Sequence record: DRR723986_18359
Reading direction: 5' to 3' (one strand)
Length of the DNA: 34,421 nucleotides
This document shows positions 1,697 to 29,449 of the stretch, piece after piece. The position numbers and the translations under genes were made by a program. The first letter of the stretch is position 1. Each line of letters begins with the position of its first letter. The notes under the pieces are model-generated. The model was not told the origin of the DNA, did not search any database, and saw nothing but the letters and a program-made list of their open reading frames with translations.

Positions 1697-4600
1697 TTAA
1701 AACAATAATCCCATGAATAAAACATCATCAATTTGATCAAAGTCACCTTGCCAATTATCAAAACTGTCTCCTACAATTTTTCCGAACTTGTTGTCGTCAT
1801 ATTCTTGCATACCAGTTATAATTCTCTTAGTTCCGGCAAGTTTTAATTTTCTTCCATCAGGTCCTCCAAATTGGTCAGGATATCCATCAGAGAACAAATA
1901 GATCGCTTCACCTTTTTTCATGGTGTACTTTCGAACGGTAAATGGAACTTGGTCAACTTCACCTCCTCCAATTGCTCGTTTATCCCCAGATATTATTTCA
2001 ATTTCACCGTTTTGTTGAACAAAAGAATGTCTTTTAGCTGCTGACAATAGTACCTCATTGGTTTTAGTGTTTATTTCACACAGGGTCATGTCCATACCGT
2101 CTCGTGACCTAAAGAAATCTTCTTCGGCATTTAATTGAGTTTTTTGGTGTAGAATTTTCTGGATTTCCATATCCAAAACTTCTAGTACTTTTTCTGGCGT
2201 CAACCATTCTCCGGTTTTCTCCATTAGTTTGTAGATGTTTCTTAAGGTTGTTGATCCAATCATGCTCATAAATGCACCAGGAACACCATGCCCCGTACAA
2301 TCACAACATGCAACAATTAACTTTTCATCATATTCTCTTATGAAGTAAAAGTCACCACTAACAACATCCCTTGGTCTAAAAAAGATAAATGAATTTGGAA
2401 GGTATTCATCAAGTACCTCTTGCTTTGGTAAAATAGAGGATTGAATTCTCTCAGCATAGTTAATACTTGCTGTAAGGTCTTTGTTGATCTCTTCAATTTT
2501 TTCTGCCTTCTCAACAACCTCTTTCGTTTTAATTTCCAGTTGCTCTTCGAGATATTTTTGTTGCGCCTTAAGTCTTTTAACCCTTACCTGGATAATTAAG
2601 AAAACGAGAGCAGAGGCTAGGACCACTACAACGAGGTAAAACCACCATGTTTTCCAATAGGGTGCCGCAACCTTTATTTTTATTTGAGCTGGCACCTCAC
2701 TGCAATTATCTTCTCCATTACATGCCACTACATTGAAGGTGTATTCTCCATCAGATATTCTGCCATAGGTTACCGACAGTTCTTTAGTAGGGTTTGAATA
2801 AATGTCGTCATACCCATCAAGTTTGAATTTGTAAGAGACGTTTTCAGGGTTTTTGAAACTAACTCCGATATAATCGAATTCAATTCTGTAATTATTATAC
2901 GGAAGGTTTATTTCTTGATCAATATCATAGGCTTGATCACCAATTCTGACTTGTAAAAGGTTTGTAACAGGTGGAACAGTGTTTTCTCTGTCTTTAGAAG
3001 GATCATATTTTATTGAACCGCCGTCTGTACCAATCCATAAATATTCAGAATTATCCAAAAACATTGCGTTCGGATTAATCTGATCTTTTATTCCTGATTT
3101 ATGATCATAAACTACTATTTCACCATTTGCATTACTGATTTTACTGAGAGCACCTCTGTGTCCGATCCACATATTTTGGCGGGCGTCTTCGTGAATTGCA
3201 TAACAGTAATTCGATTTTAATCCCTCAGAAATACCAAAATGAATGAATTTACGACCTACTTTTTTATAAACACCGTTTTCAGCCGTGGCAAACCATATTT
3301 CACCATTTGCTCGCTCAGTTATAGAAACGATTTCAAGCTCCCCAGAATTGGTGATTTCAAACTCTTGAATTGAAGAATTATGAAGGGAATAGATGAATCG
3401 GCTATGAGTGCCCATCCAAACTTTTCCGTCACTGGCTACACAAGCAGATTTGATAGCATTATGTGCTAATCCCATCTCTGTATCAAACAAATTCATGGAT
3501 TCATTTCTTATATCGTAAACGATTAATCCACCTTCAGTTGCAATCCAAACTCTTGTTTCATCCGCTGATACTTGATTAATTCTGTTTTGAAGACTACCAT
3601 AGTCAATCGGTAATTTTTTTATTTTCTCATTTCTATAGTCGAAATAATAAACACCCGATTTTCGTGTCCCGATCCATAAAACCGAATCTCTTTCATAAAG
3701 CGTTGTGACCACATCATCTGTGAGACCATTGCTTTCTGTATAGAATTCATAATATTGTTCTAGATTGGGATTTATTCTTATCAATCCGTTCTCGACCCCA
3801 TACCATTTATTGTTATCATCTATCCATATGGAAGATACATTGTTTCCTATATCATTTGGGGAGTGGGAGTAAAAAGTGAAGAAGTCATCAATTAGGGTTG
3901 CGAGACCTGCACCGAATGTACCTATCCATATATTTCCCTCTCTGTCTTGAAATACGGATTTAACAAAATTGCTTGGCATACCCGTTTCCTCATTATAGAA
4001 GGTGTATTCGTTTTTAATATTTCCTATGCTGTCAAGGTGAATTTTTATTAAACCATTACCGAAAGTCCCTAACCAAATATTGTTGTCTTGATCTTGAATG
4101 ATAGATTGGATCTCGATATCCTTTAGGTCTCTTTCTCCGTCCCAACCTGAAAATTGAACTGATCCTTCATGGATTCTTACTTTGTATAAACCATCAGACT
4201 TAGTTCCGGCTAAATAGATTCCAGATTCATTTGATTTGGAAAGTACAGAAAACCACATATCTTCTTTATGGCTTTTTACTGTTTTCCATGCTTGACCGTC
4301 TTTTCTTATGTGTAATAGACCTTCATCCGTTCCAATAAGAATATTGTCATTATCAATACATGCTAATGAAAAGAAATTATCAAAGTTAAACGATCCAATT
4401 TTCTCGATTTTATCATCTACAATAGAGTAAAGCCCTGTATTTTGCGAGATAAAAAAAACGGCATCATCTGAAGAAGCAAAGGCGTTAATTTTACTTTTAT
4501 TGAGGTCTCTTGTGTCAAGAGCGGTAATTTTATTGTTGATGAGTTTAGTAATTCCGCCTTCATTATGACCCAACCACTGAACACCTTTTTTATCTACGTG

Positions 4601-4846
4601 GGAACAGGTAATGACATCTTCAGCCAACCCTTCATTAGAATTTAAAGTTGTGAAATTTCTACCGTCAAATTTGCACAATCCTTCCCCAGTTCCTACCCAT
4701 AAATAACCACTATTGTCTTGATTAATGGAATAAATAAAGTTTTGAGAAATTCCATCTTCGGTAGTATACTGATTAAACCTATAAGTTTGACTAGTGGCAC
4801 AAAAACCAATTAAAACAAGAAAGTAAAGAAGAAGTTTTTTGTGCAT
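1697..4846 (-). CDS. Membrane-anchored PP2C/SpoIIE Ser/Thr phosphatase with periplasmic two-component-regulator beta-propeller and Y_Y_Y domain
   Basis: Signal peptide (ATS|QT), Reg_prop-type repeats (QDNSGYLWVGT, QDREGNIWIGTFG), Y_Y_Y (FKNPENVSYKFKLDGYD...DGEYTFNV), TM helix PYWKTWWFYLVVVV, coiled coil, then SpoIIE motifs PRDVVSGDFY, DCTGHGVPGAFMS, DGMD, FSDGYPDQFGG and QIDD. Confidence 0.92.
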   Translation of the reverse strand: MHKKLLLYFLVLIGFCATSQTYRFNQYTTEDGISQNFIYSINQDNSGYLWVGTGEGLCKFDGRNFTTLNSNEGLAEDVITCSHVDKKGVQWLGHNEGGITKLINNKITALDTRDLNKSKINAFASSDDAVFFISQNTGLYSIVDDKIEKIGSFNFDNFFSLACIDNDNILIGTDEGLLHIRKDGQAWKTVKSHKEDMWFSVLSKSNESGIYLAGTKSDGLYKVRIHEGSVQFSGWDGERDLKDIEIQSIIQDQDNNIWLGTFGNGLIKIHLDSIGNIKNEYTFYNEETGMPSNFVKSVFQDREGNIWIGTFGAGLATLIDDFFTFYSHSPNDIGNNVSSIWIDDNNKWYGVENGLIRINPNLEQYYEFYTESNGLTDDVVTTLYERDSVLWIGTRKSGVYYFDYRNEKIKKLPIDYGSLQNRINQVSADETRVWIATEGGLIVYDIRNESMNLFDTEMGLAHNAIKSACVASDGKVWMGTHSRFIYSLHNSSIQEFEITNSGELEIVSITERANGEIWFATAENGVYKKVGRKFIHFGISEGLKSNYCYAIHEDARQNMWIGHRGALSKISNANGEIVVYDHKSGIKDQINPNAMFLDNSEYLWIGTDGGSIKYDPSKDRENTVPPVTNLLQVRIGDQAYDIDQEINLPYNNYRIEFDYIGVSFKNPENVSYKFKLDGYDDIYSNPTKELSVTYGRISDGEYTFNVVACNGEDNCSEVPAQIKIKVAAPYWKTWWFYLVVVVLASALVFLIIQVRVKRLKAQQKYLEEQLEIKTKEVVEKAEKIEEINKDLTASINYAERIQSSILPKQEVLDEYLPNSFIFFRPRDVVSGDFYFIREYDEKLIVACCDCTGHGVPGAFMSMIGSTTLRNIYKLMEKTGEWLTPEKVLEVLDMEIQKILHQKTQLNAEEDFFRSRDGMDMTLCEINTKTNEVLLSAAKRHSFVQQNGEIEIISGDKRAIGGGEVDQVPFTVRKYTMKKGEAIYLFSDGYPDQFGGPDGRKLKLAGTKRIITGMQEYDDNKFGKIVGDSFDNWQGDFDQIDDVLFMGLLF

Positions 4847-5823
4847 TATCTGTCTTTCGGTTTTACCTGTAGATTAGATTTTGGTTTAGGAATTCCACCA
4901 ATAGGTATCGTATTGAAGGGCATCATTTCACCATATTGGTTGGTAATATAGAAACTTACATTGTTATTTTTTGCAGGTTTGGATTTATTTTTATGAAACT
5001 GTACGTCAAAAGAAGATTCCTTTTCATTGGCAAGTACCTTATGTTCACTTCTCATCCAGTTTCCTTGTCCTGATTTTTTAAGATGTACTGCGTAACGAGT
5101 ATTTGTGACAATTTTTAGATCACCGTCATAATCCCAATCGAAATTACCCTGCTTAACAGAAATCACTCTTTTATCGATATAAGGATAAACGTGCGACACC
5201 TCTTTAGGGTCTTCGTGCATTCTGAAAGTATATTCATAGGTAAAAGCGTTCCCTCCTTCAATTTCTTGATTTTTTGATGAAGAGGTACTTAAAAAATAGC
5301 GATATAAGTTGCCATCATCTCCACTTTTTCCCTGAGCGATTACTTTAATAATATATCCGCCATATTTGGGAGCATTTTCACCTGAAGTAGGGTTGAAGGG
5401 TCCAAAAGTATACCATTCATCATCATATTGATCAGTAAAAGTTTTAGAATCTAACAAATTCCCACTTTTATAATTTCCCGTAGGATTCGCTCCACGTGCA
5501 TCTTTATTGGTGATACATCCAGCACCTCCATAAACAGAAAATTTAGTAGAAGTATTAAAAGCTCCTTTTTGTTCATCATATTTGCCTCCAGTTCCTGGAT
5601 CAAAAACTCTGATATAGACTGGGTCTTTGTGGGTGGTTGGAATAACAAAAAAGAATATTTGACAAAAGTCATCATCTCCCCATGAGGTTGCCGCATCAGA
5701 TCCGAAGGTTACTAAAAAAGGAATATTTTCTTCAACCGAAGGAACACTTTGTGCCATGGAATTATTCAATCCTAAAAACAAGGAGATTACGAGTAAACTT
5801 TTTTTCATAAATGTATTTTTCAT
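4846..5823 (-). CDS. Secreted/periplasmic protein of unknown function, translationally coupled to the phosphatase (start may be 5808)
   Basis: 325-aa ORF with a signal peptide (NSMA|QS) and an acidic WGDDDF motif. Its stop overlaps the phosphatase start (TAATG at 4844-4848). Confidence 0.8.
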   Translation of the reverse strand: MKNTFMKKSLLVISLFLGLNNSMAQSVPSVEENIPFLVTFGSDAATSWGDDDFCQIFFFVIPTTHKDPVYIRVFDPGTGGKYDEQKGAFNTSTKFSVYGGAGCITNKDARGANPTGNYKSGNLLDSKTFTDQYDDEWYTFGPFNPTSGENAPKYGGYIIKVIAQGKSGDDGNLYRYFLSTSSSKNQEIEGGNAFTYEYTFRMHEDPKEVSHVYPYIDKRVISVKQGNFDWDYDGDLKIVTNTRYAVHLKKSGQGNWMRSEHKVLANEKESSFDVQFHKNKSKPAKNNNVSFYITNQYGEMMPFNTIPIGGIPKPKSNLQVKPKDR

Positions 5824-5846
5824 GGACTATTCAATAACCGTTCCAA

Positions 5847-7934
5847 TTATGGTAATACCAATTTAAATTCAACTCTTCTATTCAGAGCCTTACCTTGTTC
5901 GGTATCGTTTGAAGCAATTGGATTTCCTTCACCAAAACCTTGTGTTGAAATTCTATCCATGTCTATGCCCCCGTTTGATATGTATTTCGCAACGGATTTT
6001 GCTCTTTTATTGGAAAGCTTCATGTTGAAATCAAAGGTGTTACTATTGTCGGTATATGCGGAAATTTCAAGTAAGATGTTTTCATTTGCTTTCATAATAT
6101 CGATCACTCGATTCAGTTCGGGAATTGCTTCAGGAAGAATATTCCACTTCCCTTTATCAAATTTAACATTGTTCAAAATAAAAACATCCTCCAGTTTAAA
6201 ATCAAGATTTTCTTCAATAAATGACCTTACTACAGCATCTTCTAAACCAATTTCCTGCATTTTAATCCAAAATTCATAAGCTTCCATTGGAGTTTCGAAT
6301 TCACCATAATAATATACATAGAGTTGTTCTTCTTCAATGTATTTCAAACTGTATTCTCCAAAAGTCTCTACCAATTTAAATCTGAAATCATCTGCAGCCA
6401 ATTCTTCTTTTTCTGAAGCAAATTCTACACCGTAAAAGGTGTTTAATGAGTCTTTAGGGTCTGCATAATAGTGTTTTTCTTCAACTATTTCCGTTTCGTT
6501 CGTATTCTCAACCAAATTCAACTTTTCAATTACTCTGTCCGTTGGAATAAACCCTTTTTGATCAGTACAAACAACTGTTTTGTATACACATGCGGTAACC
6601 TCCTGTTCATTGTCAAATCCAACAATTCCTAACTGAATATCATAAATTCCAGGTTTATCAAAACTGTGCTTGACATTCAGTCCACGATAACTTGCACTTG
6701 TTCCGACATTCCAGTAATAATCATTTTCATCAATCAATAAATTTGGCAGATTAGTTTTGCTTGCATCCATATCGAACGATTCTCCAACTTTTACGGTGTC
6801 AGGAGACTCTATGTAGGGTTGCTCGGGATATTGTATAGAAAGATAGTAATAGCTTTGTTCATAAAAGGTCTGATTGACAATCGTATCAATAATGTCTAAG
6901 GTTATTTCATAATCTCCAGGTTCTGGAAAACAATAATCAATAGTTATTCCTGGAATTCTTTCTCCGTTAACATTCCACATATATACCAAAGCTTCTGAAG
7001 TACCTAAATCCATAGCGTATTGTTCCGTAAGTTCATAACAGAAATAAGTTTCAACTAAAGAATCGCATGGGCCAAACTGAGGCAATTCCAATTTGAATTT
7101 GAATAATTCATCCTTCCCATTTTTATTACTAGAGAAGTAGCCAGATTGAAAATTGTTTTTTGAGATAAGAGAAAATTCATCAGCTGGAGTATTAATAGTT
7201 GTATCAAGGATTTTAGCAGATTTTTCTGACCCCAAATCATAGAGATACAGATCTAATCCACCTACGCCACTTCGGTTTGAAGAAAAACTGAGCTTTGACT
7301 GTGAAATGGAAGGGAATACTTCATCCGAAGAGGTGTTTACAGATTTTCCAAGGTTTACAGGTTTCTGCCATTTAGAATCAACCAATTTTGATACATAGAT
7401 ATCAAATCCGCCTTGACCTCCAGGCATGTTACTTGCAAAATATAGTGTTTTACCATCCGCAGATAATGAGGGATGAGTGCAGGAGTATTCAGGACCGTTG
7501 AAAGGAAAAGCTTCAGGACTGCTCCATTGATTCGACCATTTGAAATAAGTATATAATCCTAAATTGTTGTCTGCGATATGTGCCAGTCTTTTAGGTACGT
7601 TATTATTTTGGTTACGAGATACTACTCCTACATTCTGATTTTCATCAAAACTAACGGGACCATCATTGAAATTTGTTCTGAAAGATTGATCAAATTCAAC
7701 TAGCTTAGAGGCATCTAATCGATAGATATCCACAGGTTCAGCATTGTTTTTATCTAAGATTGTTGGAAATATTCTTGACCGAGCATCTGAGCATATGAGG
7801 ATATCTCCGCCAAAATATGCGGGGCAAAACACATTAGATTTTGTATCAATCTCAACTTTATCTGTTGAATAAGATTGACCAAATACAACAGCGCTCAATC
7901 CACAAATAATGAATATTAAAAGATTCTTTACCAT
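5847..7934 (-). CDS. PorE-like OmpA-family protein (PD40 propeller, PKD-like, SPOR-like, OmpA_C peptidoglycan-binding domains)
   Basis: PD40 repeats (HPSLSADGKTLYFASNMPGGQGGFDIYVS), PKD-like YYWNVG...HSFDKPGIYDIQL, and C-terminal OmpA motifs (SAYTD, LSNKRAKSV, GFGEGNPIASNDT, NRRVEF). It lies directly downstream of porP/sprF. Confidence 0.85.
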   Translation of the reverse strand: MVKNLLIFIICGLSAVVFGQSYSTDKVEIDTKSNVFCPAYFGGDILICSDARSRIFPTILDKNNAEPVDIYRLDASKLVEFDQSFRTNFNDGPVSFDENQNVGVVSRNQNNNVPKRLAHIADNNLGLYTYFKWSNQWSSPEAFPFNGPEYSCTHPSLSADGKTLYFASNMPGGQGGFDIYVSKLVDSKWQKPVNLGKSVNTSSDEVFPSISQSKLSFSSNRSGVGGLDLYLYDLGSEKSAKILDTTINTPADEFSLISKNNFQSGYFSSNKNGKDELFKFKLELPQFGPCDSLVETYFCYELTEQYAMDLGTSEALVYMWNVNGERIPGITIDYCFPEPGDYEITLDIIDTIVNQTFYEQSYYYLSIQYPEQPYIESPDTVKVGESFDMDASKTNLPNLLIDENDYYWNVGTSASYRGLNVKHSFDKPGIYDIQLGIVGFDNEQEVTACVYKTVVCTDQKGFIPTDRVIEKLNLVENTNETEIVEEKHYYADPKDSLNTFYGVEFASEKEELAADDFRFKLVETFGEYSLKYIEEEQLYVYYYGEFETPMEAYEFWIKMQEIGLEDAVVRSFIEENLDFKLEDVFILNNVKFDKGKWNILPEAIPELNRVIDIMKANENILLEISAYTDNSNTFDFNMKLSNKRAKSVAKYISNGGIDMDRISTQGFGEGNPIASNDTEQGKALNRRVEFKLVLP

Positions 7935-8842
7935 CCTAAAAATCTTGGGTTTTGTGCCTTTGTAACGTATTTAAAATTATACTTTATTCCAATTTCGTGT
8001 GAACCGTAAGTGTATGATAAAAGTGAGTTCATTGGTATACCAAGAGAATACATGATCTGAAATTGTTTGGTTGGATTAACTTTTACTTGTAACATGGCCG
8101 CTTCTGAAGTTCTATACGCCAAACCTATTTCTAAACCTGGATTAAAAGCCACCATTAAATTAAAATCAAATTGCATTTGTCTTCCAACTTTATATTTAGC
8201 CAAAATTGATGGTTTTATCGATCCTTCTCTAAACAAATCGAATTTGTATCCTCCTCCAAGGGTGTAGTTATAATCAGAAAAGTCATTGCTTATTCGATAT
8301 TTCATTCCATTTAATTTGTGCGATAAAAATTGAGGAACCGCAAAGCTTGCGAAAGCTCTTTTACTGTAAAAATGCATACCAAAACTAAAATCAGGTAAAA
8401 TGCTTAAGGGTGTATCGCCTTGTAAAAGTGGGTCAAATTCATCTGTTGGACTTAGTTCGGTGAAATTGGTTTTTACCATATTCATTCCTGCTGCGACACC
8501 GAAAGCTAACGTTGAGTTCTCAAATTTCAGTCGGTAGGCGTATGAGGCAAAGAATCCCGTATTTCTGTCAACACCAATTTGATCTGCAAAAACTTGAAGG
8601 CCCACAGCTGAACTTAAATTCTTAAGTGGGGTATGTGCCGTTAAAGTTTCGGTTCTAGGTGCGCCCTTTAAACCTAACCACTGCCCTCTAAAAGAACCAG
8701 AAATGCTAAAAGCATCTTCACTACCTGTGTAAGCAGGGTTCAGACCAATGCCGTTAAAGAGGTATTGACTTTGCAAGGGGGTGAATTGACCATAAGCCTG
8801 AGCACCCAACAGCAGTATTGATATGAAGATTAATTTTTTCAC
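7928..8842 (-). CDS. Type IX secretion system membrane protein, PorP/SprF family
   Basis: SQYLFNGIGLNPAYTGS, RGQWLGLKGAPRT and YGSHEIGIKY...NPRF are typical PorP/SprF motifs. Its GTG start overlaps the TGA of the upstream type-B CTD gene. Confidence 0.92.
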   Translation of the reverse strand: MKKLIFISILLLGAQAYGQFTPLQSQYLFNGIGLNPAYTGSEDAFSISGSFRGQWLGLKGAPRTETLTAHTPLKNLSSAVGLQVFADQIGVDRNTGFFASYAYRLKFENSTLAFGVAAGMNMVKTNFTELSPTDEFDPLLQGDTPLSILPDFSFGMHFYSKRAFASFAVPQFLSHKLNGMKYRISNDFSDYNYTLGGGYKFDLFREGSIKPSILAKYKVGRQMQFDFNLMVAFNPGLEIGLAYRTSEAAMLQVKVNPTKQFQIMYSLGIPMNSLLSYTYGSHEIGIKYNFKYVTKAQNPRFLGW

Positions 8843-11800: not shown

Positions 11801-12639
11801 GTGATAAAAGTATAGCCGGATCCCGGGAATGTCACAGGTGCGGAAGAGGTAACTACCACATCAGTACCAAGAACCCCAAACTCCCATAACATGCTTATTG
11901 TATTGTCAGCATTGATATTCAGATAGTACAGATGATTTCCGTCTAAAATATCTCCAAGTCCTCCAATTCCAATCAGCGCGTTATCCAAAGGGTCCACTGT
12001 TTGAATAACATCAGGATGAATCCAAGTGGATAAAGTAACATCTCCGCTCAATGCGATTGAACTATGACTAGGTGCGGTCATATAATCAGAGGTAGAGAAA
12101 TTTCTACATTTTGCTACTTGACCAGTTCCGTTATTACTGGTTCCAAAGTTTGTAAAATCATTTGAATTACTTGTTTTGTCAACAAAATCATCAGTCAAGT
12201 GATATACAGCTGCAAAGTTAGCATCCCATACATTAGACGTACTAGGGTCAGTACCTATAGATCCGTTACCATAATACATTCGAATTACAGTATTAGTAGC
12301 GGAACTGAGTGTTGGTATTTTTACCCAAGCTTGAAAATTACCATCCGTAGGATCATATCGTTCAATTTGGTGCTCTAAAAGCGTGCTGCCATCAGCCGCA
12401 GTAAAGGCGATATCATATCCGTATAAACTTTGAACCTTTCCACCATTACTTACGGTTGCTAAGTCACCATCAATCTCATCAATTAGTATTGGGAAATTGG
12501 TATGAGGTCCCGCCCCAGCAACTTGACTACTTTGAATCGTAATTGTTTTGTAGAAATGATAACCAGCCAATTGAGCATAGCTGTTCCCGACTAACATAAT
12601 TGTTAGAAATAGCACTATTTTATTTAGTTTGGGTAGCAT
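8839..12639 (-). CDS. T9SS type-B CTD (gliding motility-associated C-terminal domain) surface protein: DUF2341 + LamG/ConA-like domain + nine Ig-like repeats
   Basis: Signal peptide (SYA|QL). DUF2341-like TNFPILI...DIAFTAADG...WVKIP...MYYGN, LamG-like FDGDQDEVRISN, and type-B CTD signature VPDVITPNGDGFND...ILNRWGQTVF...YQNDWQG...TYFF. Confidence 0.9.
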   Translation of the reverse strand: MLPKLNKIVLFLTIMLVGNSYAQLAGYHFYKTITIQSSQVAGAGPHTNFPILIDEIDGDLATVSNGGKVQSLYGYDIAFTAADGSTLLEHQIERYDPTDGNFQAWVKIPTLSSATNTVIRMYYGNGSIGTDPSTSNVWDANFAAVYHLTDDFVDKTSNSNDFTNFGTSNNGTGQVAKCRNFSTSDYMTAPSHSSIALSGDVTLSTWIHPDVIQTVDPLDNALIGIGGLGDILDGNHLYYLNINADNTISMLWEFGVLGTDVVVTSSAPVTFPGSGYTFITATRDVSANTVTFYQDGIQLGSTQTYATDPSTGLLSFIELRLGTNQQFTNLDFDGDQDEVRISNIVRSADWILTDFNTINDPATFYTKGPETESCDPSFTYTDLQYCEGAALMPVPTISGDAGGTFSSTPAGLSLNPSTGQIDVSSSSVGSYAVTYTITACVYDSTLTVDIVAVDDPAYLYLSSTYCTNDADPTAIITGTAGGTFSGPAQLALNTSTGQIDLSASTPGGPYTIKYVTPGPLCKDSATFDITIFDAAEAAFNYTAGQFCLDGTVESPTITGLTGGNFTASPAGIVVDFSSGDLNLGTSNAGLYDVYYDSPNGCVDTFALNLIDLDDGAFTYPQPSYCHEAADPTPTITGTTGGTFSEPTGNLSLNTSTGTIDLSASTPGATYTITYTTPGPDCPVTETFNLTIIAMGDPSFNYSQTTFCEYDLDPVANITGSNGGTFSEPTSSLTLNASDGTIDVSAGPTGMYWIVYTTPGLCQKSDSVQITINPDDDGSFTYSQIMYCVDETDPTPTISGTTGGTFSEPSGNLSLNTSTGEIDLSASTPDATYTITYTTPGPNCPVSETFDVTITSLEDASFTYLSNNYCQDEVNQFPTITGVAGGSFTTTSSIALLNGTTGEVDIMATPVGGPYTIYYTTPGPTCPNVDSFDISVGLVEDPAFSYLQTDYCVNETNPVPTIDGTTGGVFTASSSVTINAGDGTIDLLNSTPGGPYAITYTTPGPACLRDSIYFITIWAIDDPSFQYSSNNYCELDANQLPTLTGVSGGNWSISPTGLTIDASNGELDINNGLTNTTFTIQYVTNGMCIDSTTFDITIDDAVTADAGPDQILNIQTETQLEAVDPTIGSGQWTVSNDAQIENQLDPYSNINNLPAGETWCFWTVSNGVCPTATDTMRIQVNDLAVPDVITPNGDGFNDTYVVPGIENKINTIEILNRWGQTVFKQENYQNDWQGTDMNGEPLPDDTYFFIITIEDESNQSGFIVIKT
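9340..11520 (-). repeat. Nine tandem ~81-aa (~243-nt) coding repeats, each with two Cys
   Basis: Consensus D(P/G)SFxY...YC...PTITGTTGGTFS...LNxSTGxIDLSAST.G.Y.I.YTTPGP.C. Repeats 4 and 6 share nucleotide stretches (ccagttgaggtatttaatga near 10184 and 10670). Confidence 0.9.
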
Positions 12640-12672
12640 TGGCTTCTTGTCAACTTTTATCTTACGTAAGAT

Positions 12673-13053
12673 TTAGTCATTGGTTTTAGATTTAATTACG
12701 ATCATTTCACCAATTAAGTTTTTAAAATCTTGACCAGTCTCTTCCATTTCTATGTCATCTTCATCATAAAGCCAAAGAACTGAAACTTTTTTAGAGCTTT
12801 GGAGTTTTTCTAAACTCAATAACATATTGACGATAAGTTTTGAGGACGCTGTATTGTAATATTCTAATTCTATTACGACATCAATTGAGTCAGATGGACT
12901 CGAATATAATTCTTGCAACCATTTTTTGAAGGGTTGATAAAAGGTCTTTGCATCTTCAGGCAAGCTTCTGCCTTTAAGGCTTAATTGTCCCAATAGTGCG
13001 TCACCTTTAATTTCTGGTGTTTTGAAGGATTCTTCTATGAAAATTTTACTCAT
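12673..13053 (-). CDS. SiaC family / DUF1987 regulatory phosphoprotein
   Basis: KTPEI...LSLKGRSLPEDAKTFYQP...LEYYNTASSK...VLWLYDEDDIEMEETGQDF matches the DUF1987/SiaC pattern. Confidence 0.88.
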   Translation of the reverse strand: MSKIFIEESFKTPEIKGDALLGQLSLKGRSLPEDAKTFYQPFKKWLQELYSSPSDSIDVVIELEYYNTASSKLIVNMLLSLEKLQSSKKVSVLWLYDEDDIEMEETGQDFKNLIGEMIVIKSKTND

Positions 13054-13072
13054 ACTTTTTATTCCTTGGGGT

Positions 13073-13080
13073 CAAAAATA
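13073..13080 (-). promoter_or_regulatory. Bacteroidota housekeeping promoter -7 element (TATTTTTG) ahead of the siaC-adhesin-porP cluster
   Basis: Matches the TAnnTTTG consensus about 20 nt upstream of the ATG at 13053. Confidence 0.55.
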
Positions 13081-13155
13081 TTGCAAATAATTCTTTTAAA
13101 AATATAAAATCGATTAGCAACTAAATACAGGGGGTTGAATGGATAAAATTACCCG

Positions 13156-13563
13156 TTAGAGTCGTTCCACCGCTATTAGATTTATTTCGCAGTTCATGAC
13201 TTCATCATAATATTCTCCAATTTCTCTCATTTCAAGATCGTCATTTTCGTAGTACCAATCTATAGAGACTTCTGTTTTCAAACCGATCATGTCATCAATC
13301 ATTCTCAACATTCTGGTGATAATTACGGCAGAACTACTGTTCATGTACATTAACGCGAATTTCACTTTTGTTTTTGGTGCGGGATTGCTCGTGTATTCGA
13401 CCATCCATCTATTGAATTGCCAATAGAATTCTCTCGTATTTTCTGGAATAGAAGTCCCTCTGAGTTCAATCAGGCCTTCTTTTTTATCGACTTTAATATA
13501 GGGTGTTTTACCCGTAGCCTCAATAACGAGCATGTTTTCATTTAATTCGGCTTGGTCGCTCAT
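13156..13563 (-). CDS. SiaC family / DUF1987 regulatory phosphoprotein (second paralog)
   Basis: IEATGKTPYI...ELRGTSIPENTREFY...LMYMNSSS...IDWYYENDDLEMREIGEYY. Confidence 0.88.
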   Translation of the reverse strand: MSDQAELNENMLVIEATGKTPYIKVDKKEGLIELRGTSIPENTREFYWQFNRWMVEYTSNPAPKTKVKFALMYMNSSSAVIITRMLRMIDDMIGLKTEVSIDWYYENDDLEMREIGEYYDEVMNCEINLIAVERL

Positions 13564-13653
13564 TGTTCTTGTTTTCAGAGAATTTTCTCAAAGTTTGAAT
13601 TGAATCTCCAATTTAGTGTTAATTCTTGAGATTAGAATAAACTTAAATTGAAT

Positions 13654-14007
13654 TTATGAAAACAATGTTTTTAAATGATAGTTCAATTCCTCATTTTTTA
13701 ATAGGAATTTATCTGCACCGTTTGAAAAGGCGAATTCAATTAGTTTGAGGTCTTTTATCCCAGTTAAAAGGATAATTTTAGCATTTTTAAATTTTGCCCT
13801 AAGTCTTGGTATTTCATTGGCTCCCAGTTCGTTTTCAAGAATATGGTCAATAAAAATAATCTCAGGGTCGCCCTGATATTCATCTGAAAGCACTGCATTA
13901 CAATGCTCGAAATGGTCTAAATTTAACAGACCTAAATTTTGTAGTTTTTTCCGAAACATTCTGGCAAAAAACAAGTCATCTTCTATGTGAATTATTTTTT
14001 GTTTCAT
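13654..14007 (-). CDS. Single-domain response regulator (receiver only)
   Basis: IEDD acidic pocket, phospho-Asp in IFIDH, IILLTG and FLLK. 117 aa with no output domain. Confidence 0.88.
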   Translation of the reverse strand: MKQKIIHIEDDLFFARMFRKKLQNLGLLNLDHFEHCNAVLSDEYQGDPEIIFIDHILENELGANEIPRLRAKFKNAKIILLTGIKDLKLIEFAFSNGADKFLLKNEELNYHLKTLFS

Positions 14008-14417
14008 TTACCAAATAGACTGTTGAAAAATTTTTTAATAGGACTGTCTTCAGTTTTTAATGCGGTCAAAAACTCTTCACTGTTTTGCATTATTAAGACG
14101 TCCTTTCTAAAATAATTAGCTGCTCCTTTGTTAAAAGCTTCTTCTAAAACTTTTTTATCATTTTGCCCAGAAATGATGGCTACTTTGACTTGTGGTAGAT
14201 TTTCTTTGAATAAAGGAAGTGCATCAACCCCGTTTACTCCTGATAAATAGTGGTCTAAAAAAATTGCTTTAGGCTTTATTTTGAGAAGGTCATTCAAAGC
14301 AGATTCGCAATCAGTAAAATGATGAATCTTGAAGTCCCCCATTTTTGTTATCCTTCGCGAAAATATTTTAGCAAAGAATTCATCATCTTCTACAATAAAA
14401 ATATGATTAGCAGCCAT
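14004..14417 (-). CDS. Single-domain response regulator (receiver only)
   Basis: IVEDD, IFLDHYLSGVNG, IISG and YFRK. ATGA overlap with the next gene. Confidence 0.9.
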   Translation of the reverse strand: MAANHIFIVEDDEFFAKIFSRRITKMGDFKIHHFTDCESALNDLLKIKPKAIFLDHYLSGVNGVDALPLFKENLPQVKVAIISGQNDKKVLEEAFNKGAANYFRKDVLIMQNSEEFLTALKTEDSPIKKFFNSLFGK

Positions 14418-14811
14418 ATTGAAGCTGTCTTAATTCTTTTTGCGCTAGAACAGATAAGCTTCGCAGGGCACTGTTAGAAATATTAGAGTCTAACTTTAGA
14501 AATTTTGATGTGGCGTTAATGACAAATTCATCCATAGTGAAAGGGACGTAATTTTTGTAAATATGCACAATACTTGTTCCTGCGTTTTTATTTTTAAGAA
14601 TCTTTAAAAAATGCAGTTCCTCTTCACTATTGACGAGCGATTCATCAGTAAATATAATGGCCTCATTTCCTAGGGATTCATTTATCATTTCAAGATAAGA
14701 TTGAAACTCAACAACTTCAACTTTTGTCTCTTTTAAGCGCTCAAATTTATTGATTGCCTGATACAAGTCAGACTTAAGAGAAACATTATTACTAGCTATT
14801 GCAATTTTCAT
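14407..14811 (-). CDS. Degenerate receiver-like (pseudo-receiver) protein
   Basis: REC-like layout (KIAIASNN...IIFTDESL...IVHIY...SKFLK), but the acidic pair is replaced by SNN. It overlaps the downstream receiver gene by 11 nt. Confidence 0.55.
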   Translation of the reverse strand: MKIAIASNNVSLKSDLYQAINKFERLKETKVEVVEFQSYLEMINESLGNEAIIFTDESLVNSEEELHFLKILKNKNAGTSIVHIYKNYVPFTMDEFVINATSKFLKLDSNISNSALRSLSVLAQKELRQLQYGC

Positions 14812-14840
14812 TTTTCCGTTATGTGTTCAAACACCTACCG

Positions 14841-14904
14841 CAAAAATAAAGCATTAGAGTCTCCGGGAGTAAAGTTCTCGATAAGTGGTTAGTTTATCTC
14901 GATA
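14841..14904 (-). promoter_or_regulatory. -7 promoter box (TATTTTTG, 14841-14848) with upstream direct repeat TCTCGATA x2 at 21-bp period (possible LytTR-type operator)
   Basis: tctcgata occurs at 14876-14883 and 14897-14904. A TAnnTTTG match lies about 30 nt upstream of the ATG at 14811. Confidence 0.5.
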
Positions 14905-14907
14905 GAA

Positions 14908-17547
14908 TTAAGTGTTAAAGGATTTTTGTTTTTCAACAATGCTTGAAACAGCTGATTTTAGAAGGTTTTTGAATTGGCTAATGTCTGATTCATTAAATTG
15001 TTTCGATTCAATTTTTTCAGCAATTCTCAGTGTTTCTTTAAATTCAAACGTGAGCAATGATGGTTTGATCTTGTGGGCGATTTGCGCAAGTTGTACGTGA
15101 TTTTTTTGTTTTTCAGCTTCCATGATAGCCGATAATTCATCATTTGTGGAGGTAATAAAAATATCAAAGAGGCTGTTTGCGAAGTCGGCGTCACCATCCG
15201 CTAGGTTTGTCAAAGTTGGCATTTCGAGGGCATGCCAATTTTTTGTATCAGGTTGTTTTTTAGTTTTGTTACCAACTTCACTTAATATGTTGATGATATC
15301 TTCTTTTTTAAAAGGTTTTGGAATAAATCCTTGCATTCCTGCTTGTTCACATTTTGCCTGTTCTTCTTCTAAAACATGAGCCGATAAAGCGTAAATAGGT
15401 ACATCACTGAACGTTTTGATTGTTTTGGTAGCTTCGTATCCGTCAATAACTGGCATTTGCAGATCCATAAAAATAACATGTGGAGAAAAACTCTTGGTTT
15501 TGTCTATCCCTTCTTGACCATTTTTAGCAAAGGCGACTGTTACATTGAATTTAGAGAGTACCTGTTGCATCAATTTAATGTTCACTTCATGGTCTTCACA
15601 AACTAAAATTCTTAAATGTTGTAAGTCTTTGCTTGAACTTTTTAATGATTCTTCTTGTGTGTCAAATTTTTCGACCGTTTTAAACGGTAGCTTAAAGCAA
15701 AAATTTGATCCTTGATTAATAGTCGAGCTTACTGAAACTTGGCCGGACATTAATTCAACAAGTTGTTTGACAATGGATAATCCGAGCCCAGTTCCGTGAT
15801 GTTTTCTTTGTATTCCCGAATCTACTTGCGCGAAGTTCTCAAAAATTGTAAGTAGATCAGATCCGTTCATGCCGATACCAGTATCGATAATGTTAAATAC
15901 TGTGAATTTGTTCTCTTGACTAACTTTAATTTCGATTCTTCCTTTTTCAGTGAATTTTATGGCGTTATTAATAAGGTTGTTTAAAATTTGAGAAATTCTG
16001 GTGTCGTCTCCGTGAACAAACAATGGTACATCATTGTCAATGTTTATACTCAAATCTAAACCTTTTATTTGCGCTCTATGTTGATGTAATTTAAGAACCT
16101 TTTGTAATGTTTCTTCTAGCGAAAAATTACGTGGTCTAATTTTCATTTTTCCAGCTTCTATTTTAGAAAGATCTAGAATGTCATTGATAATAACCAGTAG
16201 GTCTTCGCCGCTTTTTTGAATTATATTAATGTATTCTTTTTGTTGTTCGTTTATCGGAGTAGATTCAAGAAGGTCTGCAAAACCCACCAAAGCATTTAAA
16301 GGAGTTCTAATTTCATGACTCATGTTCGCCAAGAAAAGTGATTTGAATTCGGCAGATTTTTCAGCCAATTCTTTTGCCTCCTGTAGTTTTTTCTCCGTTT
16401 CTTTTCTAGCTGATATATCTTGATAAAAAATGAGGTGAGCCGGTTCGTTATTAAATGCAATTGGAGCCACAGATATTTGAACTGGGATGGATTTTTTATC
16501 AGAGGTCAATAAATAAGAATCAAGTAAATCTATCTTTCCTTTTTGGTACAGGTCAAAACCTTTCTTTGCTTCTTCTAAGTGCCACTCTGGAATTAGGTCA
16601 TAAACATGCATTCCAATCATTTTACTAACCGAGTAACCATGCAAATGTGCGCAGGCTTCATTCAAGTCAATTATTTTTCCGTCGGCTCTTGACTCCACCA
16701 AAATAGGCACATCACTTCCTTCAAAAATTGATCTAAAATTTCTTTCGTTTTCTCTAATTTTTTGCTCCGATCGCTCTCGTTCTGTTACCTCTCTAACAAA
16801 GAAAGTAACTCCTTGAACAACTCCCTTGTTCAGAATAGGGCTGCAATTTGATTCTAAATAGAAACTTGCATTTGACAAATTGAAGGCGTTAACCGCTATA
16901 GTTTGCTCATTGTTTAAAGCCGTTTCAAACATGGGTAGCCAAACATCCCTAAATATTGGAGGGACGTTTTCAAAAAAATTATCTCCTACTCGAGGAGCAG
17001 AATTGTAATGTTCTTTAATGTTAACTCTGGCAAGTTGATTTATGATTAATAATTTTCCTTTCGTATCTAAAGACCAAATTCCATCAGAAGTATTATTAAG
17101 GATAGCACGAGTGTTAGCATAGTTATCATCTAGCCTTTTTTCTAGATCACGTCTTAATTTGTTTTCGGCTTTTTGTCTTTTTACTGCATTAAGTATTCTT
17201 TCAAGGTTGTCTGAAGTGATTTGTTCTTTCGATAAAAAATCAATCGCACCTCTTTTTAAGGAATCTACAGCAATACGGAGATCTGCCGTTGCGGTTAGAA
17301 TGATGACAGAAGCATCATCCATGAACGAGAAGGACTCTAAAAAGTCTATCGCATTTCCGTCAGGCAAATTATAGTCGCAAAAAACAGCATCAATGTTCAT
17401 TAAATTGCTGAGTGCTTTAGTATCTGCTAAACTTTCTGCAATAAATAATTCATGAGGTTGCTGCAGCGTAGATAATTTTCGTTTGAAAATTTTTTGATCG
17501 GCATGATCATCCTCTATCAATAGAATATTTATTTTAATTGTGCTCAA
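14908..17547 (-). CDS. Cytoplasmic hybrid histidine kinase REC-PAS-PAS-HisKA-HATPase-REC-Hpt
   Basis: N-terminal REC (IEDD, FCDYNLPDG), two PAS-like regions, FLANMSHEIRTPLN, NNAIKFT, DTGIG, GTGLGLSI, second REC (MDLQMP, KP) and Hpt AHKIKPS. No TM helix; TTG start. Confidence 0.93.
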   Translation of the reverse strand: MSTIKINILLIEDDHADQKIFKRKLSTLQQPHELFIAESLADTKALSNLMNIDAVFCDYNLPDGNAIDFLESFSFMDDASVIILTATADLRIAVDSLKRGAIDFLSKEQITSDNLERILNAVKRQKAENKLRRDLEKRLDDNYANTRAILNNTSDGIWSLDTKGKLLIINQLARVNIKEHYNSAPRVGDNFFENVPPIFRDVWLPMFETALNNEQTIAVNAFNLSNASFYLESNCSPILNKGVVQGVTFFVREVTERERSEQKIRENERNFRSIFEGSDVPILVESRADGKIIDLNEACAHLHGYSVSKMIGMHVYDLIPEWHLEEAKKGFDLYQKGKIDLLDSYLLTSDKKSIPVQISVAPIAFNNEPAHLIFYQDISARKETEKKLQEAKELAEKSAEFKSLFLANMSHEIRTPLNALVGFADLLESTPINEQQKEYINIIQKSGEDLLVIINDILDLSKIEAGKMKIRPRNFSLEETLQKVLKLHQHRAQIKGLDLSINIDNDVPLFVHGDDTRISQILNNLINNAIKFTEKGRIEIKVSQENKFTVFNIIDTGIGMNGSDLLTIFENFAQVDSGIQRKHHGTGLGLSIVKQLVELMSGQVSVSSTINQGSNFCFKLPFKTVEKFDTQEESLKSSSKDLQHLRILVCEDHEVNIKLMQQVLSKFNVTVAFAKNGQEGIDKTKSFSPHVIFMDLQMPVIDGYEATKTIKTFSDVPIYALSAHVLEEEQAKCEQAGMQGFIPKPFKKEDIINILSEVGNKTKKQPDTKNWHALEMPTLTNLADGDADFANSLFDIFITSTNDELSAIMEAEKQKNHVQLAQIAHKIKPSLLTFEFKETLRIAEKIESKQFNESDISQFKNLLKSAVSSIVEKQKSFNT

Positions 17548-17550
17548 AGA

Positions 17551-19074
17551 TTACTTATTAATGGTGAATATAAAGCAAGTTCCTTCTCCTAGTGCTGATT
17601 TACATTGTACAAATCCTCCATTGTCTTGAATGATTTTTTTAACGATTGAAAGCCCAACTCCATTGTTTTCAAATCCGTTTTTAGGTTGGAGCGTTTGAAA
17701 AATATCAAAGACACGTTGTTGACTTTTTTCTGGTATTCCCGGACCGTTGTCAGAGATTGAAAAGACAAACTGAGTATCTTCTTCGAAACAGTCTACTTGA
17801 ATTATCCCAACAGTTTTATCCTGATATTTTATCGAATTATCGATAATGTTTTGAATGACTTGAGAAAACTGAAGCTCATTGAATATAATTTCGGGCAGAG
17901 GATTTTTGAATTCAAGTGTAAATTTTTTATCCAGATTTAGGCTGTCAAATACTTTTTGAATGGATTCTTGCGAGTTAATTTTTACTTTATCGATTGATCC
18001 GAATCCTGCTCTAGTGTAGGCCAGGATTCCATCTATCATCATTGACATTCGTTCAGCACGGTTTTTAACGAGAGCAAAATTTTCCTCACAAGTTTCATCC
18101 ATTTTCCCATTCAAATCCTCTTCTAAAAAAGACACGAAGCCATGAATTGCTCGTAAAGGTGCTTTCAGGTCATGACTAACAATGTGCGCGAAGTCATCTA
18201 AATTCTTATTGTTTATATTTAATTGCTCTTGAGAATTTTTTAATTCTGTAATGTCATGAGCTACTGCAAAAAGGTCACTTCCGTTAGCATCTGGGTGACA
18301 TGTCCAATGCAACCAAACATAATTCCCTTCTTTAGTTTTGTACCTGTTTTCAAACCCAATTGACTTTTCACCCGAATTTAACTTATCCATTTCCTGATAA
18401 GTTTTTGACAAATCATCTGGATGAACAAAATTAACGAATGGTTGAGACAGTAATTCTTCTTGAGTGTATCCAAGCATTAAGGAGAATGAGGGATTAATTT
18501 GCTTGAAATAGCCATTGGTGTCAGCTATACAAAGTAAATCAAGTGACAAATCAAAAAAGCGCTGGTATTGAATTCTTTCTTTTTCAATTTTAGCTTGTTC
18601 AATTGCCGAGATAACCTCAGTAGATAGAGTTTTTAACGCTCTTTTCTGATGTTCATTTAGGCTATTGGGCTGGTTGTCTATGACACAAAGTGTTCCCAAG
18701 GCAAAACCATTTTTGTCAATTAATGGTTGACCAGCATAGAATCGAATGTTAGGGTCGCCGGTAACCAGTGGATTATTAACAAACTTTTCATCCTCAAGTG
18801 CATTTTCAACCTGCATTAATTCTGTGCCCAAAATGGCATGTTGGCAAAATGAAATTTCACGAGGGGTTTGTGGAACGTCCAAGCCTACCTTACTCTTAAA
18901 CCATTGACGACTTTCATCAATAAGGCTAATTAGGCAGATCGGAACTTCACATATCTCAGAGGCCAATTTGGTGAGATTGTCAAGTCTCTCGTCAGCAATT
19001 GTGTCTAGGATTTCATATGAATCCAATGCTTTAAGTCGCTCGCTTTCGTTCTCTGGAATAGGTCGTTCGCTCAT
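17551..19074 (-). CDS. Cytoplasmic GAF-PAS histidine kinase
   Basis: GAF (ESERLKALDSYEILDT...SFCQHAI...NIRFYAG), PAS (FFDLSLDLLCIADTNGYF), SHDLKAPLR, DNSIKY, DNGPGI and GVGLSI. ATG at 19074 is preferred over the track's TTG at 19107. Confidence 0.93.
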   Translation of the reverse strand: MSERPIPENESERLKALDSYEILDTIADERLDNLTKLASEICEVPICLISLIDESRQWFKSKVGLDVPQTPREISFCQHAILGTELMQVENALEDEKFVNNPLVTGDPNIRFYAGQPLIDKNGFALGTLCVIDNQPNSLNEHQKRALKTLSTEVISAIEQAKIEKERIQYQRFFDLSLDLLCIADTNGYFKQINPSFSLMLGYTQEELLSQPFVNFVHPDDLSKTYQEMDKLNSGEKSIGFENRYKTKEGNYVWLHWTCHPDANGSDLFAVAHDITELKNSQEQLNINNKNLDDFAHIVSHDLKAPLRAIHGFVSFLEEDLNGKMDETCEENFALVKNRAERMSMMIDGILAYTRAGFGSIDKVKINSQESIQKVFDSLNLDKKFTLEFKNPLPEIIFNELQFSQVIQNIIDNSIKYQDKTVGIIQVDCFEEDTQFVFSISDNGPGIPEKSQQRVFDIFQTLQPKNGFENNGVGLSIVKKIIQDNGGFVQCKSALGEGTCFIFTINK

Positions 19075-19274
19075 TAATTTTTCAGGATCTTTACCTAAAG
19101 ATAGCAATTTTCAGTCACCTTGTTGAGTGGTTTGAAAATGGCAAGTAAAAAAGGATGGGTGAAGAATGAATTGAGCTCTTACTGTGTTGAATTCGTATTA
19201 ATTCGTGGTCATCTCTAAGATGAAGAATAAGAATCTGCTCTGCAATTGCTCTGCGTTCCACATAAAGCCTTATT

Positions 19275-19313
19275 AAAAACAAAACCTCAAAGCTTCCTTA
19301 AGCTTTGAGGTTT
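19275..19313 (-). terminator. Rho-independent terminator downstream of tRNA-Asp
   Basis: 14-bp stem aaacctcaaagctt/aagctttgaggttt with a 4-nt loop, followed by a U-rich tail on the minus strand. Confidence 0.8.
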
Positions 19314-19357
19314 CTAGGTCTACAGCCATATAGACTTACCTTTAACTCTATTTGAGT

Positions 19358-19434
19358 TGGCGGTCCGGACGGGACTCGAACCCGCGACCCCATGCGTGAC
19401 AGGCATGTATTCTAACCAACTGAACTACCGGACC
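19358..19434 (-). tRNA. tRNA-Asp (GTC), CCA encoded
   Basis: Reverse complement is GGTCCGGTAGTTCAGTTGGTTAGAATACATGCCTGTCACGCATGGGGTCGCGGGTTCGAGTCCCGTCCGGACCGCCA, with acceptor stem, D arm, GTC anticodon and TTCGA T-loop. Confidence 0.97.
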
Positions 19435-27076: not shown

Positions 27077-27150
27077 GTTCACAATATACTGTGTATATTC
27101 TTTGAATCTATGCACTAAATATGAGCGAATTCAGCCTTAGTTTTGCAAGG

Positions 27151-29448: not shown

Positions 29449-29449
29449 C

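Follow-up and report, generated by a model that had tools for sequence, protein, structure and literature searches.

A conserved sensor phosphatase and the unannotated protein Unk325 joined to type IX secretion genes in Bacteroidia, with a putative SiaA/SiaC-type partner switch at one marine locus

DRR723986_18359 is a stretch of DNA of 34,421 nucleotides (hereafter the window) from a marine Bacteroidota bacterium. Its minus strand carries a tightly packed block of 12 open reading frames (ORFs) that runs from 19107 down to 1697 and includes a transmembrane sensor phosphatase, an unannotated exported protein that we call Unk325, genes for a type IX secretion system (T9SS) surface cassette, two SiaC/DUF1987 genes and a set of putative phosphorelay genes. 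A first-pass annotation of this DNA had described twelve co-oriented, tightly coupled genes, which the ORF layout bears out, and every junction that it gave is exact (a 1-nt overlap at 4846, overlaps at 7928-7934, 8839-8842, 14004-14007 and 14407-14417, and a 3-nt gap at 17548-17550). It placed the end of the block at 19074, where there is an in-frame ATG, but the longest ORF of the outermost gene begins at a TTG at 19107. The domains that it named are present by Pfam and NCBIfam matches, except that one of the three proteins it called receivers has no detectable receiver domain. That the arrangement goes beyond chance is shown by its conservation across genomes, and not by the window alone. 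The genes that are conserved together are the following.

8839-12639, minus strand: T9SS surface protein with a C-terminal domain (CTD) of type B, hereafter the cargo (DUF2341, Laminin_G_3, nine Cys-pair repeats of ~80 aa, CHU_C CTD)
7928-8842, minus strand: PorP/SprF-family outer-membrane protein (PF11751, 1e-63; TIGR03519, 229.5 bits against a cut-off of 90.55)
5847-7934, minus strand: PorE-like periplasmic protein (PD40 propeller, PKD and OmpA_C by Pfam)
4846-5823, minus strand: Unk325, an exported, unannotated periplasmic protein of 325 aa, predicted to be all-beta; the anchor gene of the conserved module
1697-4846, minus strand: transmembrane sensor phosphatase of 1049 aa (Reg_prop, Y_Y_Y and SpoIIE by Pfam; NF038263, 2.2e-43)

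To follow this gene set across genomes, one genome per GTDB species was scanned with an Unk325 alignment, and at least 576 relatives were confirmed among 600 pattern matches. The best 80 of these, which are the most query-like, formed a first set of loci (L020-L099) with 10-kb flanks where the contig allowed. Unk325 is followed on the same strand by a propeller-PP2C gene in 72 of the 80 best loci; this count comprises 70 found by script and two added by hand, L020, where a SiaC gene intervenes, and L041, where the genes overlap by 6 nt. A PorE-like gene lies directly before Unk325 in 63 loci (59 of the 73 whose upstream sequence reaches 2.3 kb or more). PorP occurs in 51 (47 of the 67 reaching 4 kb or more) and a type-B CTD match in 51. 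All five genes occur together in 41 of the 80 (39 by script, plus the same two corrections). In ORF clustering of these loci, every other gene family is limited to 13 of the 80 at most, so the flanks are not conserved. The N-terminal part of the cargo is variable across the 80 loci, falling into several ORF clusters, while the CTD is kept; most tblastn matches to the cargo cover just the C-terminal ~100-300 residues.

The second set was an even sample of 301 Bacteroidia genomes, searched with hidden Markov models (HMMs) built from the first set. Unk325 was found in 51 of the 301 genomes and in 27 of 169 genera. The nearest genome, G001, serves as a proxy for the window's own genome; its contig C196 carries a twin locus whose proteins are 96-100% identical to those of the window. 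This twin and a 44-residue contig-edge fragment in G292 were left out, and 55 of 57 Unk325 matches were used. Among the 51 Unk325 copies with at least 3.3 kb downstream, 41 have a PP2C sensor there; two of these were assigned by hand, L110 because its called ORF runs into Unk325 and L127 because two ORFs make up the gene. In 3 of the 51, the downstream Reg_prop sensor ends in a different output or in none that could be recognised. PorE-like genes are directly upstream in 29 of 53 copies; 17 of 51 have PorP and 16 of 51 a type-B CTD gene. Counted by coded family (19 in all), PP2C is found in 14, PorE-like in 13 and PorP in 8. Both sets thus show synteny, far beyond the window's genome, of the genes that had been grouped from the window alone: those of the T9SS cassette, the unknown secreted protein and the propeller phosphatase with SpoIIE. 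Sequence comparison shows an ancient conserved unit, widespread in Bacteroidia, that consists of a type-B CTD protein, PorP, a PorE-like, peptidoglycan-binding protein, Unk325 and a Reg_prop/Y_Y_Y-transmembrane-PP2C phosphatase. Within it, the link of T9SS genes to the Unk325-phosphatase pair is frequent and phylogenetically wide, but not universal.

Variants of the pair were also seen. At two loci, L121 (G210) and L125 (G288), the Reg_prop/Y_Y_Y sensor after Unk325 has a histidine-kinase output, with a PAS domain in L125; this kind of output was found only in variants of family f66. The Unk325-linked Reg_prop/Y_Y_Y sensor of L149 (G013) has 840 aa and no recognisable output domain. Three loci that have no T9SS cassette, L119, L132 and L145 (from f6, f15 and f46, respectively), encode a TPR-repeat protein of 316-351 aa after the phosphatase on the same strand. 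G001 has a second Unk325-phosphatase pair (L157, contig C58, 2754-6736), which is cut by the contig end.

The phosphatase of the window is predicted to have a signal peptide, a periplasmic part of ~710 residues (~22-735), one transmembrane helix (736-754), a linker and a cytoplasmic PP2C domain (~830-1042). Its sensor domains match PF07494 (Reg_prop) at 1.2e-36 and PF07495 (Y_Y_Y) at 1.8e-09. The match to the SiaA model NF038263 spans positions 376-654 of 658; being confined to the C-terminal half, it does not reach the equivalog cut-off. The sole sequence relative of the PP2C domain in the PDB is SiaA (6K4E, 8e-25), and the residues of the PP2C catalytic motifs are invariant in 28 orthologues. 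Judged by its sequence, this PP2C domain is of the SiaA type.

Unk325 has no Pfam or NCBIfam match. It has 4332 homologues at E <= 1e-3; the 120 matches listed have identities of 57-86% and no Pfam domain, are called 'hypothetical protein' where named, and span Crocinitomicaceae, Flavobacteriales, Marinilabiliales and other Bacteroidota, with one from Paracrocinitomix mangrovi (K6119_15565) among them. A Saccharicrinis isolate is among the relatives from the GTDB species scan. Unk325 is therefore a highly conserved unannotated periplasmic protein, with such identities across orders. The alignment columns contain invariant acidic motifs (WGDDD, GDDGNLY and a DxDxDG-like 'DWDYDG'). A structural model with a predicted local distance difference test (pLDDT) score of 77.6 shows two beta-sandwiches. 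Foldseek comparison of this model with the PDB gave only weak two-sandwich or CUB-like matches (TM ~0.2, on the template-modelling scale), and an Unk325 profile had no match among PDB sequences at E values up to 10. LipL32, suggested as a relative by a language-model Atlas lead (0.91), was confirmed by neither search and was set aside.

The CTD of the cargo scores 58.2 bits on TIGR04131 against a cut-off of 35 and matches CHU_C at 1.2e-24, and the PorP gene overlaps the cargo gene by 4 nt. The protein at 5847-7934 scores 222.7 bits on NF053607, which is below the cut-off, and 178.8 bits on the PorE model NF052230 against a cut-off of 600; no TPR was detected in it by Pfam or NCBIfam. By these scores it is PorE-like rather than a PorE equivalog. 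A T9SS translocon is found in G001 (SprA_N, 529 bits). Two further loci on contig C395 of G001, L160 (15000-34999) at 4612-19338 and L161 (35000-48000) at 5688-11670, have a SiaA-like PP2C, a type-B CTD cargo and PorP on the same strand without Unk325. One of these PP2C proteins has the architecture dCache-HAMP-SpoIIE; the second, TPR-SpoIIE, is spread over two ORFs and is accompanied by a cargo with a CotH domain. Such PorP-SpoIIE adjacencies in G001 were discarded as a signal, being close to chance by a rough estimate (1.4 expected, 3 seen).

Upstream of the cargo gene, the block continues with the SiaC pair and the phosphorelay genes, and it is bounded by a tRNA gene with its terminator.

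12673-13053, minus strand: SiaC2, second SiaC/DUF1987 protein (PF09345, 2.9e-31; Thr68 at the phosphosite position)
13156-13563, minus strand: SiaC1, SiaC/DUF1987 phospho-switch protein (PF09345, 9.4e-32)
13654-14007, minus strand: REC3, single-domain response-regulator receiver (PF00072, 2e-10)
14004-14417, minus strand: REC2, single-domain response-regulator receiver (PF00072, 3.4e-15)
14407-14811, minus strand: REC1, small lineage-restricted protein, possibly a degenerate receiver and receiver-like at best
14908-17547, minus strand: HK2, cytoplasmic hybrid histidine kinase, REC-PAS-PAS-HisKA-HATPase-REC-Hpt (Pfam; two Response_reg stretches, one of them an N-terminal REC; no transmembrane segment)
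17551-19107, minus strand: HK1, cytoplasmic GAF-PAS-HisKA-HATPase histidine kinase (Pfam; no transmembrane segment; alternative start ATG at 19074)
19281-19434, minus strand: upstream boundary, tRNA-Asp and a strong hairpin terminator (ARAGORN, Rfam, stem with T-run)

SiaC1 matches the PDB entry 6KKO at 6.8e-10, with the 'NTS' motif aligned with 'NSS' and Ser76 at the position of the Pseudomonas aeruginosa T68 phosphosite. SiaC2 is 35% identical to SiaC1. Both score 66-68 bits on NF038265, under the cut-off of 150, which marks them as members of the SiaC family by sequence, not as SiaC equivalogs. In P. aeruginosa, phosphorylation of SiaC at T68 by SiaB blocks partner binding, and SiaC binds a coiled-coil stalk in SiaD, as described in the accessible part of PMC8457831. 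Among 31 SiaC copies (the window's twin and one 87-residue fragment were left out), all 31 have Ser or Thr in the T68 column. A tree built from the same 31 rows puts SiaC1 with the first pair member of L020-L022 (97/100), and SiaC2 with the second members and the phosphatase-adjacent copy of L020 (98/94); copies from other families are not placed.

SiaC genes are common, being found in 168 of the 301 sampled Bacteroidia genomes, often in many copies. The 3.6-Mb genome G001 has expanded paralogues, with 42 SpoIIE/PP2C, 12 SiaC, 5 DUF6272 and 29 PorP_SprF matches. DUF6272 is the Pfam family matched by those G001 ORFs that match the SiaB kinase model NF038264; all five DUF6272 matches lie outside the twin locus and two are beside other SiaC genes. 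A SiaB-like kinase acting in trans is plausible because of these matches elsewhere in the genome. We know of no studied role of SiaC/DUF1987 proteins other than activating a diguanylate cyclase. No diguanylate cyclase (SiaD) was found among the window ORFs scanned, and in G001, which is 93% complete, the sole GGDEF match scores 22 bits, below the cut-off. The suggestion that the system works without cyclic di-GMP (c-di-GMP) is reasonable in view of this nearest genome.

The attachment of SiaC to the sensor phosphatase recurs in several families. Past the phosphatase, SiaC is found in five loci from three other families: directly after it in L124 (G041, f43) and L143 (G019, f21), and with a SiaB-like DUF6272 gene between them in L126 (G118, f43), L127 (G083, f43) and L150 (G286, f45), where the order is cargo-PorP-PorE-Unk325-phosphatase-DUF6272-SiaC. 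Across the 301 genomes, a tally that includes the unpublished G089 and G167, SiaC is present in 49 of 51 Unk325-positive genomes versus 119 of 250 others, although kin among these are not independent. The two Unk325-positive genomes without SiaC, G210 and G288, are exactly those in which HisKA-HATPase stands in place of PP2C, and DUF6272 was not found in G210. SiaC is likely to be the substrate of the PP2C sensor phosphatase, given the SiaA-type domain, the adjacency of the two genes, their co-occurrence and the histidine-kinase output of the two exceptions.

Three Crocinitomicaceae-like loci, L020, L021 and L022, have an HK2-REC-SiaC-SiaC block resembling that of the window at another position relative to the core, and in each a further, third SiaC directly adjoins Unk325 or the phosphatase. 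L020 (JBLFXO010000010.1) is filed under 'Arenicella sp.' (Gammaproteobacteria), yet it carries a Bacteroidota T9SS module with an Unk325 that is 75% identical to that of the window; the gammaproteobacterial filing is probably a binning error. The first-pass annotation had counted the phosphorelay as part of the module. This did not hold up, as the phosphorelay travels with the module only in these three loci and in the window and its twin. A survey of gene neighbourhoods across Bacteroidota, which had been proposed as a check, thus supports the wide co-occurrence of the core but finds the phosphorelay and SiaC pair linked to it only in Crocinitomicaceae-like genomes.

The phosphorelay genes have HisKA and HATPase domains in both HK1 and HK2, two receivers matched by Response_reg, and a marginal Hpt domain in HK2 that lies 0.2 bits under its cut-off (24.4 against 24.6 bits). 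REC2 has an acidic pair and an Asp in 'FLDHYL'. REC1 has no Pfam or NCBIfam match, no BLASTP similarity to its neighbour REC2, and only 4 relatives among 5.8 billion proteins. A language-model Atlas lead connects it to CheY-like clusters (0.93), and its low-confidence model (pLDDT 54) has an alternating beta/alpha pattern. Pfam identified no DNA-binding or enzymatic output domain for this phosphorelay among the ORFs of the block.

The tRNA-Asp gene is located at 19358-19434 (ARAGORN; Rfam RF00005, 68.7 bits) and is followed by a terminator with a 15-bp stem and T-run at 19314-19281, which bounds the block upstream. Scans for terminators and sigma-70 promoters were at chance level (10 versus 11.2 expected and 70 versus 68.5 expected, respectively), and only the tRNA terminator is convincing. 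The motif TAnnTTTG occurs on the minus strand in the spacers before REC1 (14841-14848) and SiaC2 (13073-13080) and could mark internal promoters; its frequency in the whole window is at chance (47 versus 46), so these two intergenic matches are hints only. SiaC2 and the cargo gene are 33 nt apart, with no terminator-like site in the gap. One metatranscriptomic run (X3, Logan contigs) contains a close relative of the locus. Its contigs bridge the phosphatase and Unk325 (4467-5330), Unk325 and the PorE-like gene (5302-6021), REC2 and REC1 (14016-14717), and HK2 and HK1 (16773-17927), and one contig spans cargo, SiaC2, SiaC1 and REC3 (12508-13949). Depth differences along these contigs are unfit for ranking genes. 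Beyond the block, 192 nt downstream of the phosphatase on the minus strand (2-1504), the window breaks off within a gene for an exported protein that has at least six PKD domains; other loci do not keep this protein at that position. On the plus strand at 27121-32056, a 775-aa ORF with no Pfam match is followed by an 868-aa DUF5723/thrombospondin-type-3/OmpA protein.

On balance, we lean towards reading the locus as a SiaA/SiaC-type serine/threonine partner switch with an input side that forms part of the cell envelope. Unk325 would partner the propeller sensor domain in the periplasm, either as a co-receptor or by coupling, because it remains with that domain even where a histidine kinase replaces the PP2C output. 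Via the PorE-like protein and PorP, the sensor may report on the surface-anchored cargo, be it ligand or contact, its load or its assembly; the PorE-like protein, PorP and cargo would either give the input or be the monitored object. The cargo-state signal would set the activity of the PP2C domain, which would dephosphorylate SiaC-type proteins, here SiaC2 and/or SiaC1 at Thr68/Ser76. The kinase that phosphorylates SiaC (DUF6272, SiaB-like) would be encoded elsewhere in the genome. Unphosphorylated SiaC would then bind a target, most likely the neighbouring relay of HK1, HK2 and single-domain receivers, since the SiaC pair is fixed beside a cytoplasmic phosphorelay in this lineage and no diguanylate cyclase is detectable.

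Several observations weigh against this reading. SiaC is not encoded near Unk325 in most genomes: within the fetched flanks (~10 kb of Unk325) HMMs found it in 6 of the 80 best loci and 9 of 55 even-sample loci. No SiaB-like kinase (NF038264 or a DUF6272-like ORF) was found in the window or in the 80 loci L020-L099. The phosphorelay link comes from four related genomes that are not independent. With 42 SpoIIE and 29 PorP_SprF matches in G001, some adjacency within that genome is expected by chance. An adjacent sensor is absent from 8 of the 80 best loci and from 7 of 51 even-sample Unk325 copies, and families f6, f15, f46 and f50 have the Unk325-phosphatase pair with adjacent T9SS genes in 0 of 17 loci; the sensor therefore does not strictly need the surface cassette. 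The X3 contig bridging is compatible with co-transcription but is no proof of a single transcript, and DNA carry-over is possible. Finally, the direction of signalling, whether outside-in or regulation of the cassette, is one that we infer.

A more specific version of the partner switch, which we regard as somewhat improbable, treats the T9SS-anchored complex as a trans-envelope receptor. Contact of the cargo, or its binding of a ligand, would pass via PorP, the PorE-like protein and Unk325 to the propeller sensor, and the PP2C domain would unlock SiaC, which would dock on a histidine-kinase stalk and gate the phosphorelay. If true, this would be a kind of outside-in signalling not described for T9SS and a c-di-GMP-independent role for SiaC. 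Another assignment of roles, in which the cassette is both the monitored object and the output and no external signal is received, is an unlikely alternative that nevertheless has a precedent: the CTD of Porphyromonas gingivalis PorA binds the sensor kinase PorY in the periplasm and activates PorXY-SigP, according to the accessible part of PMC12152298. Here Unk325 and the sensor would detect type-B CTDs or un-anchored cargo in the periplasm and feed back on the production or secretion of this cargo class. That the CTD, PorP and PorE-like parts are kept while the N-terminal part of the cargo varies fits such a secretion checkpoint, but the families with Unk325-phosphatase and no adjacent T9SS genes would need a cargo in trans, and the module contains no transcription factor.

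The sensor domain itself suggests another input. In the hybrid two-component systems (HTCS) of Bacteroides, the Reg_prop/Y_Y_Y domain binds a soluble oligosaccharide. By the logic of polysaccharide utilisation loci, with a phosphatase as the output, the lectin-like cargo would capture polymer, Unk325 would be a calcium-dependent glycan binder or presenter, and the propeller domain would bind the oligosaccharide. We rate this as decidedly doubtful. It would account for the HTCS-like sensor architecture and the histidine-kinase output that replaces PP2C in G210 and G288, for the ConA-like Laminin_G_3 domain of the cargo, and for the invariant acidic DxDxDG-like motifs and two-beta-sandwich model of Unk325; however, the 80 best loci share no conserved glycoside hydrolase, SusC/D gene or transporter, and the functional domains of the cargo differ among genomes. 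Very unlikely, in our estimate, is that the phosphorelay and SiaC pair (12673-19107) and the T9SS-Unk325-phosphatase module (1697-12639) are independent units that became neighbours by chance in one family. The relay and SiaC pair are not beside the module in most loci, several of the 12 SiaC matches in G001 are in contexts without T9SS genes, and the TAnnTTTG motifs upstream of REC1 and SiaC2 could be internal promoters. Against such a juxtaposition, L020, L021 and L022 keep the linkage despite rearrangement and each have an extra SiaC beside Unk325 or the phosphatase, and other families have SiaC, with or without SiaB, directly after the phosphatase. The short gap between SiaC2 and the cargo gene, free of terminator-like sites, and the RNA-library contig that spans cargo, SiaC2, SiaC1 and REC3 also argue against it.

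The component kinds of the locus are already known: the SiaA/B/C partner switch, the anchoring set of type-B cargo, PorP and PorE-like proteins, and the HTCS-type sensor domain. The module was not described in the literature searched, with supplements and subscription papers lying outside this search, and a 2025 survey of PP2C proteins makes no mention of propeller, periplasm or SiaA. The locus looks like an undescribed wiring of the cell surface to intracellular signalling. By joining SiaC, PorP/PorE-like proteins and Unk325, the module offers a genetically tractable hypothesis for surface-state sensing in gliding or attached Bacteroidota, and it bears on functions of PorP-like/PorE-like complexes beyond anchoring.

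As in SiaABCD of P. aeruginosa (6K4E, 6KKO; PMC8457831, accessible part), there is a SiaA-type membrane PP2C and a SiaC/DUF1987 protein with a conserved N-(S/T) phosphosite motif, and three related loci have a SiaB-like DUF6272 between phosphatase and SiaC. The window nonetheless lacks two defining features of SiaABCD, a SiaB in the operon and SiaD. It differs further in its periplasmic input, a Reg_prop/Y_Y_Y double propeller with a dedicated partner protein, in having two SiaC paralogues, and in its linkage to T9SS genes and a phosphorelay. HptB-HsbR-HsbA and RsbU/V/W (mentioned in PMC8457831) are partner switches that likewise bring together, in one pathway, a His-Asp phosphorelay and a PP2C directed at a STAS-like switch protein; in them a single protein carries receiver and PP2C, and a sigma factor or cyclase is the output, whereas here receiver and PP2C are separate proteins. 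The sensor shares its Reg_prop and Y_Y_Y periplasmic architecture and single transmembrane helix with the HTCS sensors of Bacteroides; unlike those, it has a SpoIIE/PP2C output in place of HisKA-HATPase-REC-HTH and an obligatory-looking partner gene, Unk325.

On the T9SS side, the cargo-PorP-PorE-like gene trio resembles the anchoring complexes of type-B CTD cargo, PorP-like and PorE-like proteins. In Flavobacterium johnsoniae, six porP-like genes adjoin porE-like genes, and cell-wall anchoring of non-mobile cargo has been proposed (PMC9143113, accessible part). In the present locus, Unk325 and a sensor phosphatase come after the trio, and the words 'phosphatase' and 'SpoIIE' do not occur in that paper. 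In PorA-PorXY-SigP of P. gingivalis, a T9SS cargo is likewise the periplasmic ligand of an inner-membrane sensor, but PorY is a histidine kinase, PorA is a type-A CTD protein, and the accessible part of PMC12152298 includes no PorP/PorE cassette, Unk325, PP2C or SiaC in the system. Compared with all of these, what is new is the fixed pairing of a propeller sensor phosphatase with the unannotated periplasmic family Unk325, the frequent joining of that pair to a cassette for T9SS anchoring, and its link to SiaC, which in this locus comes with a phosphorelay as well.

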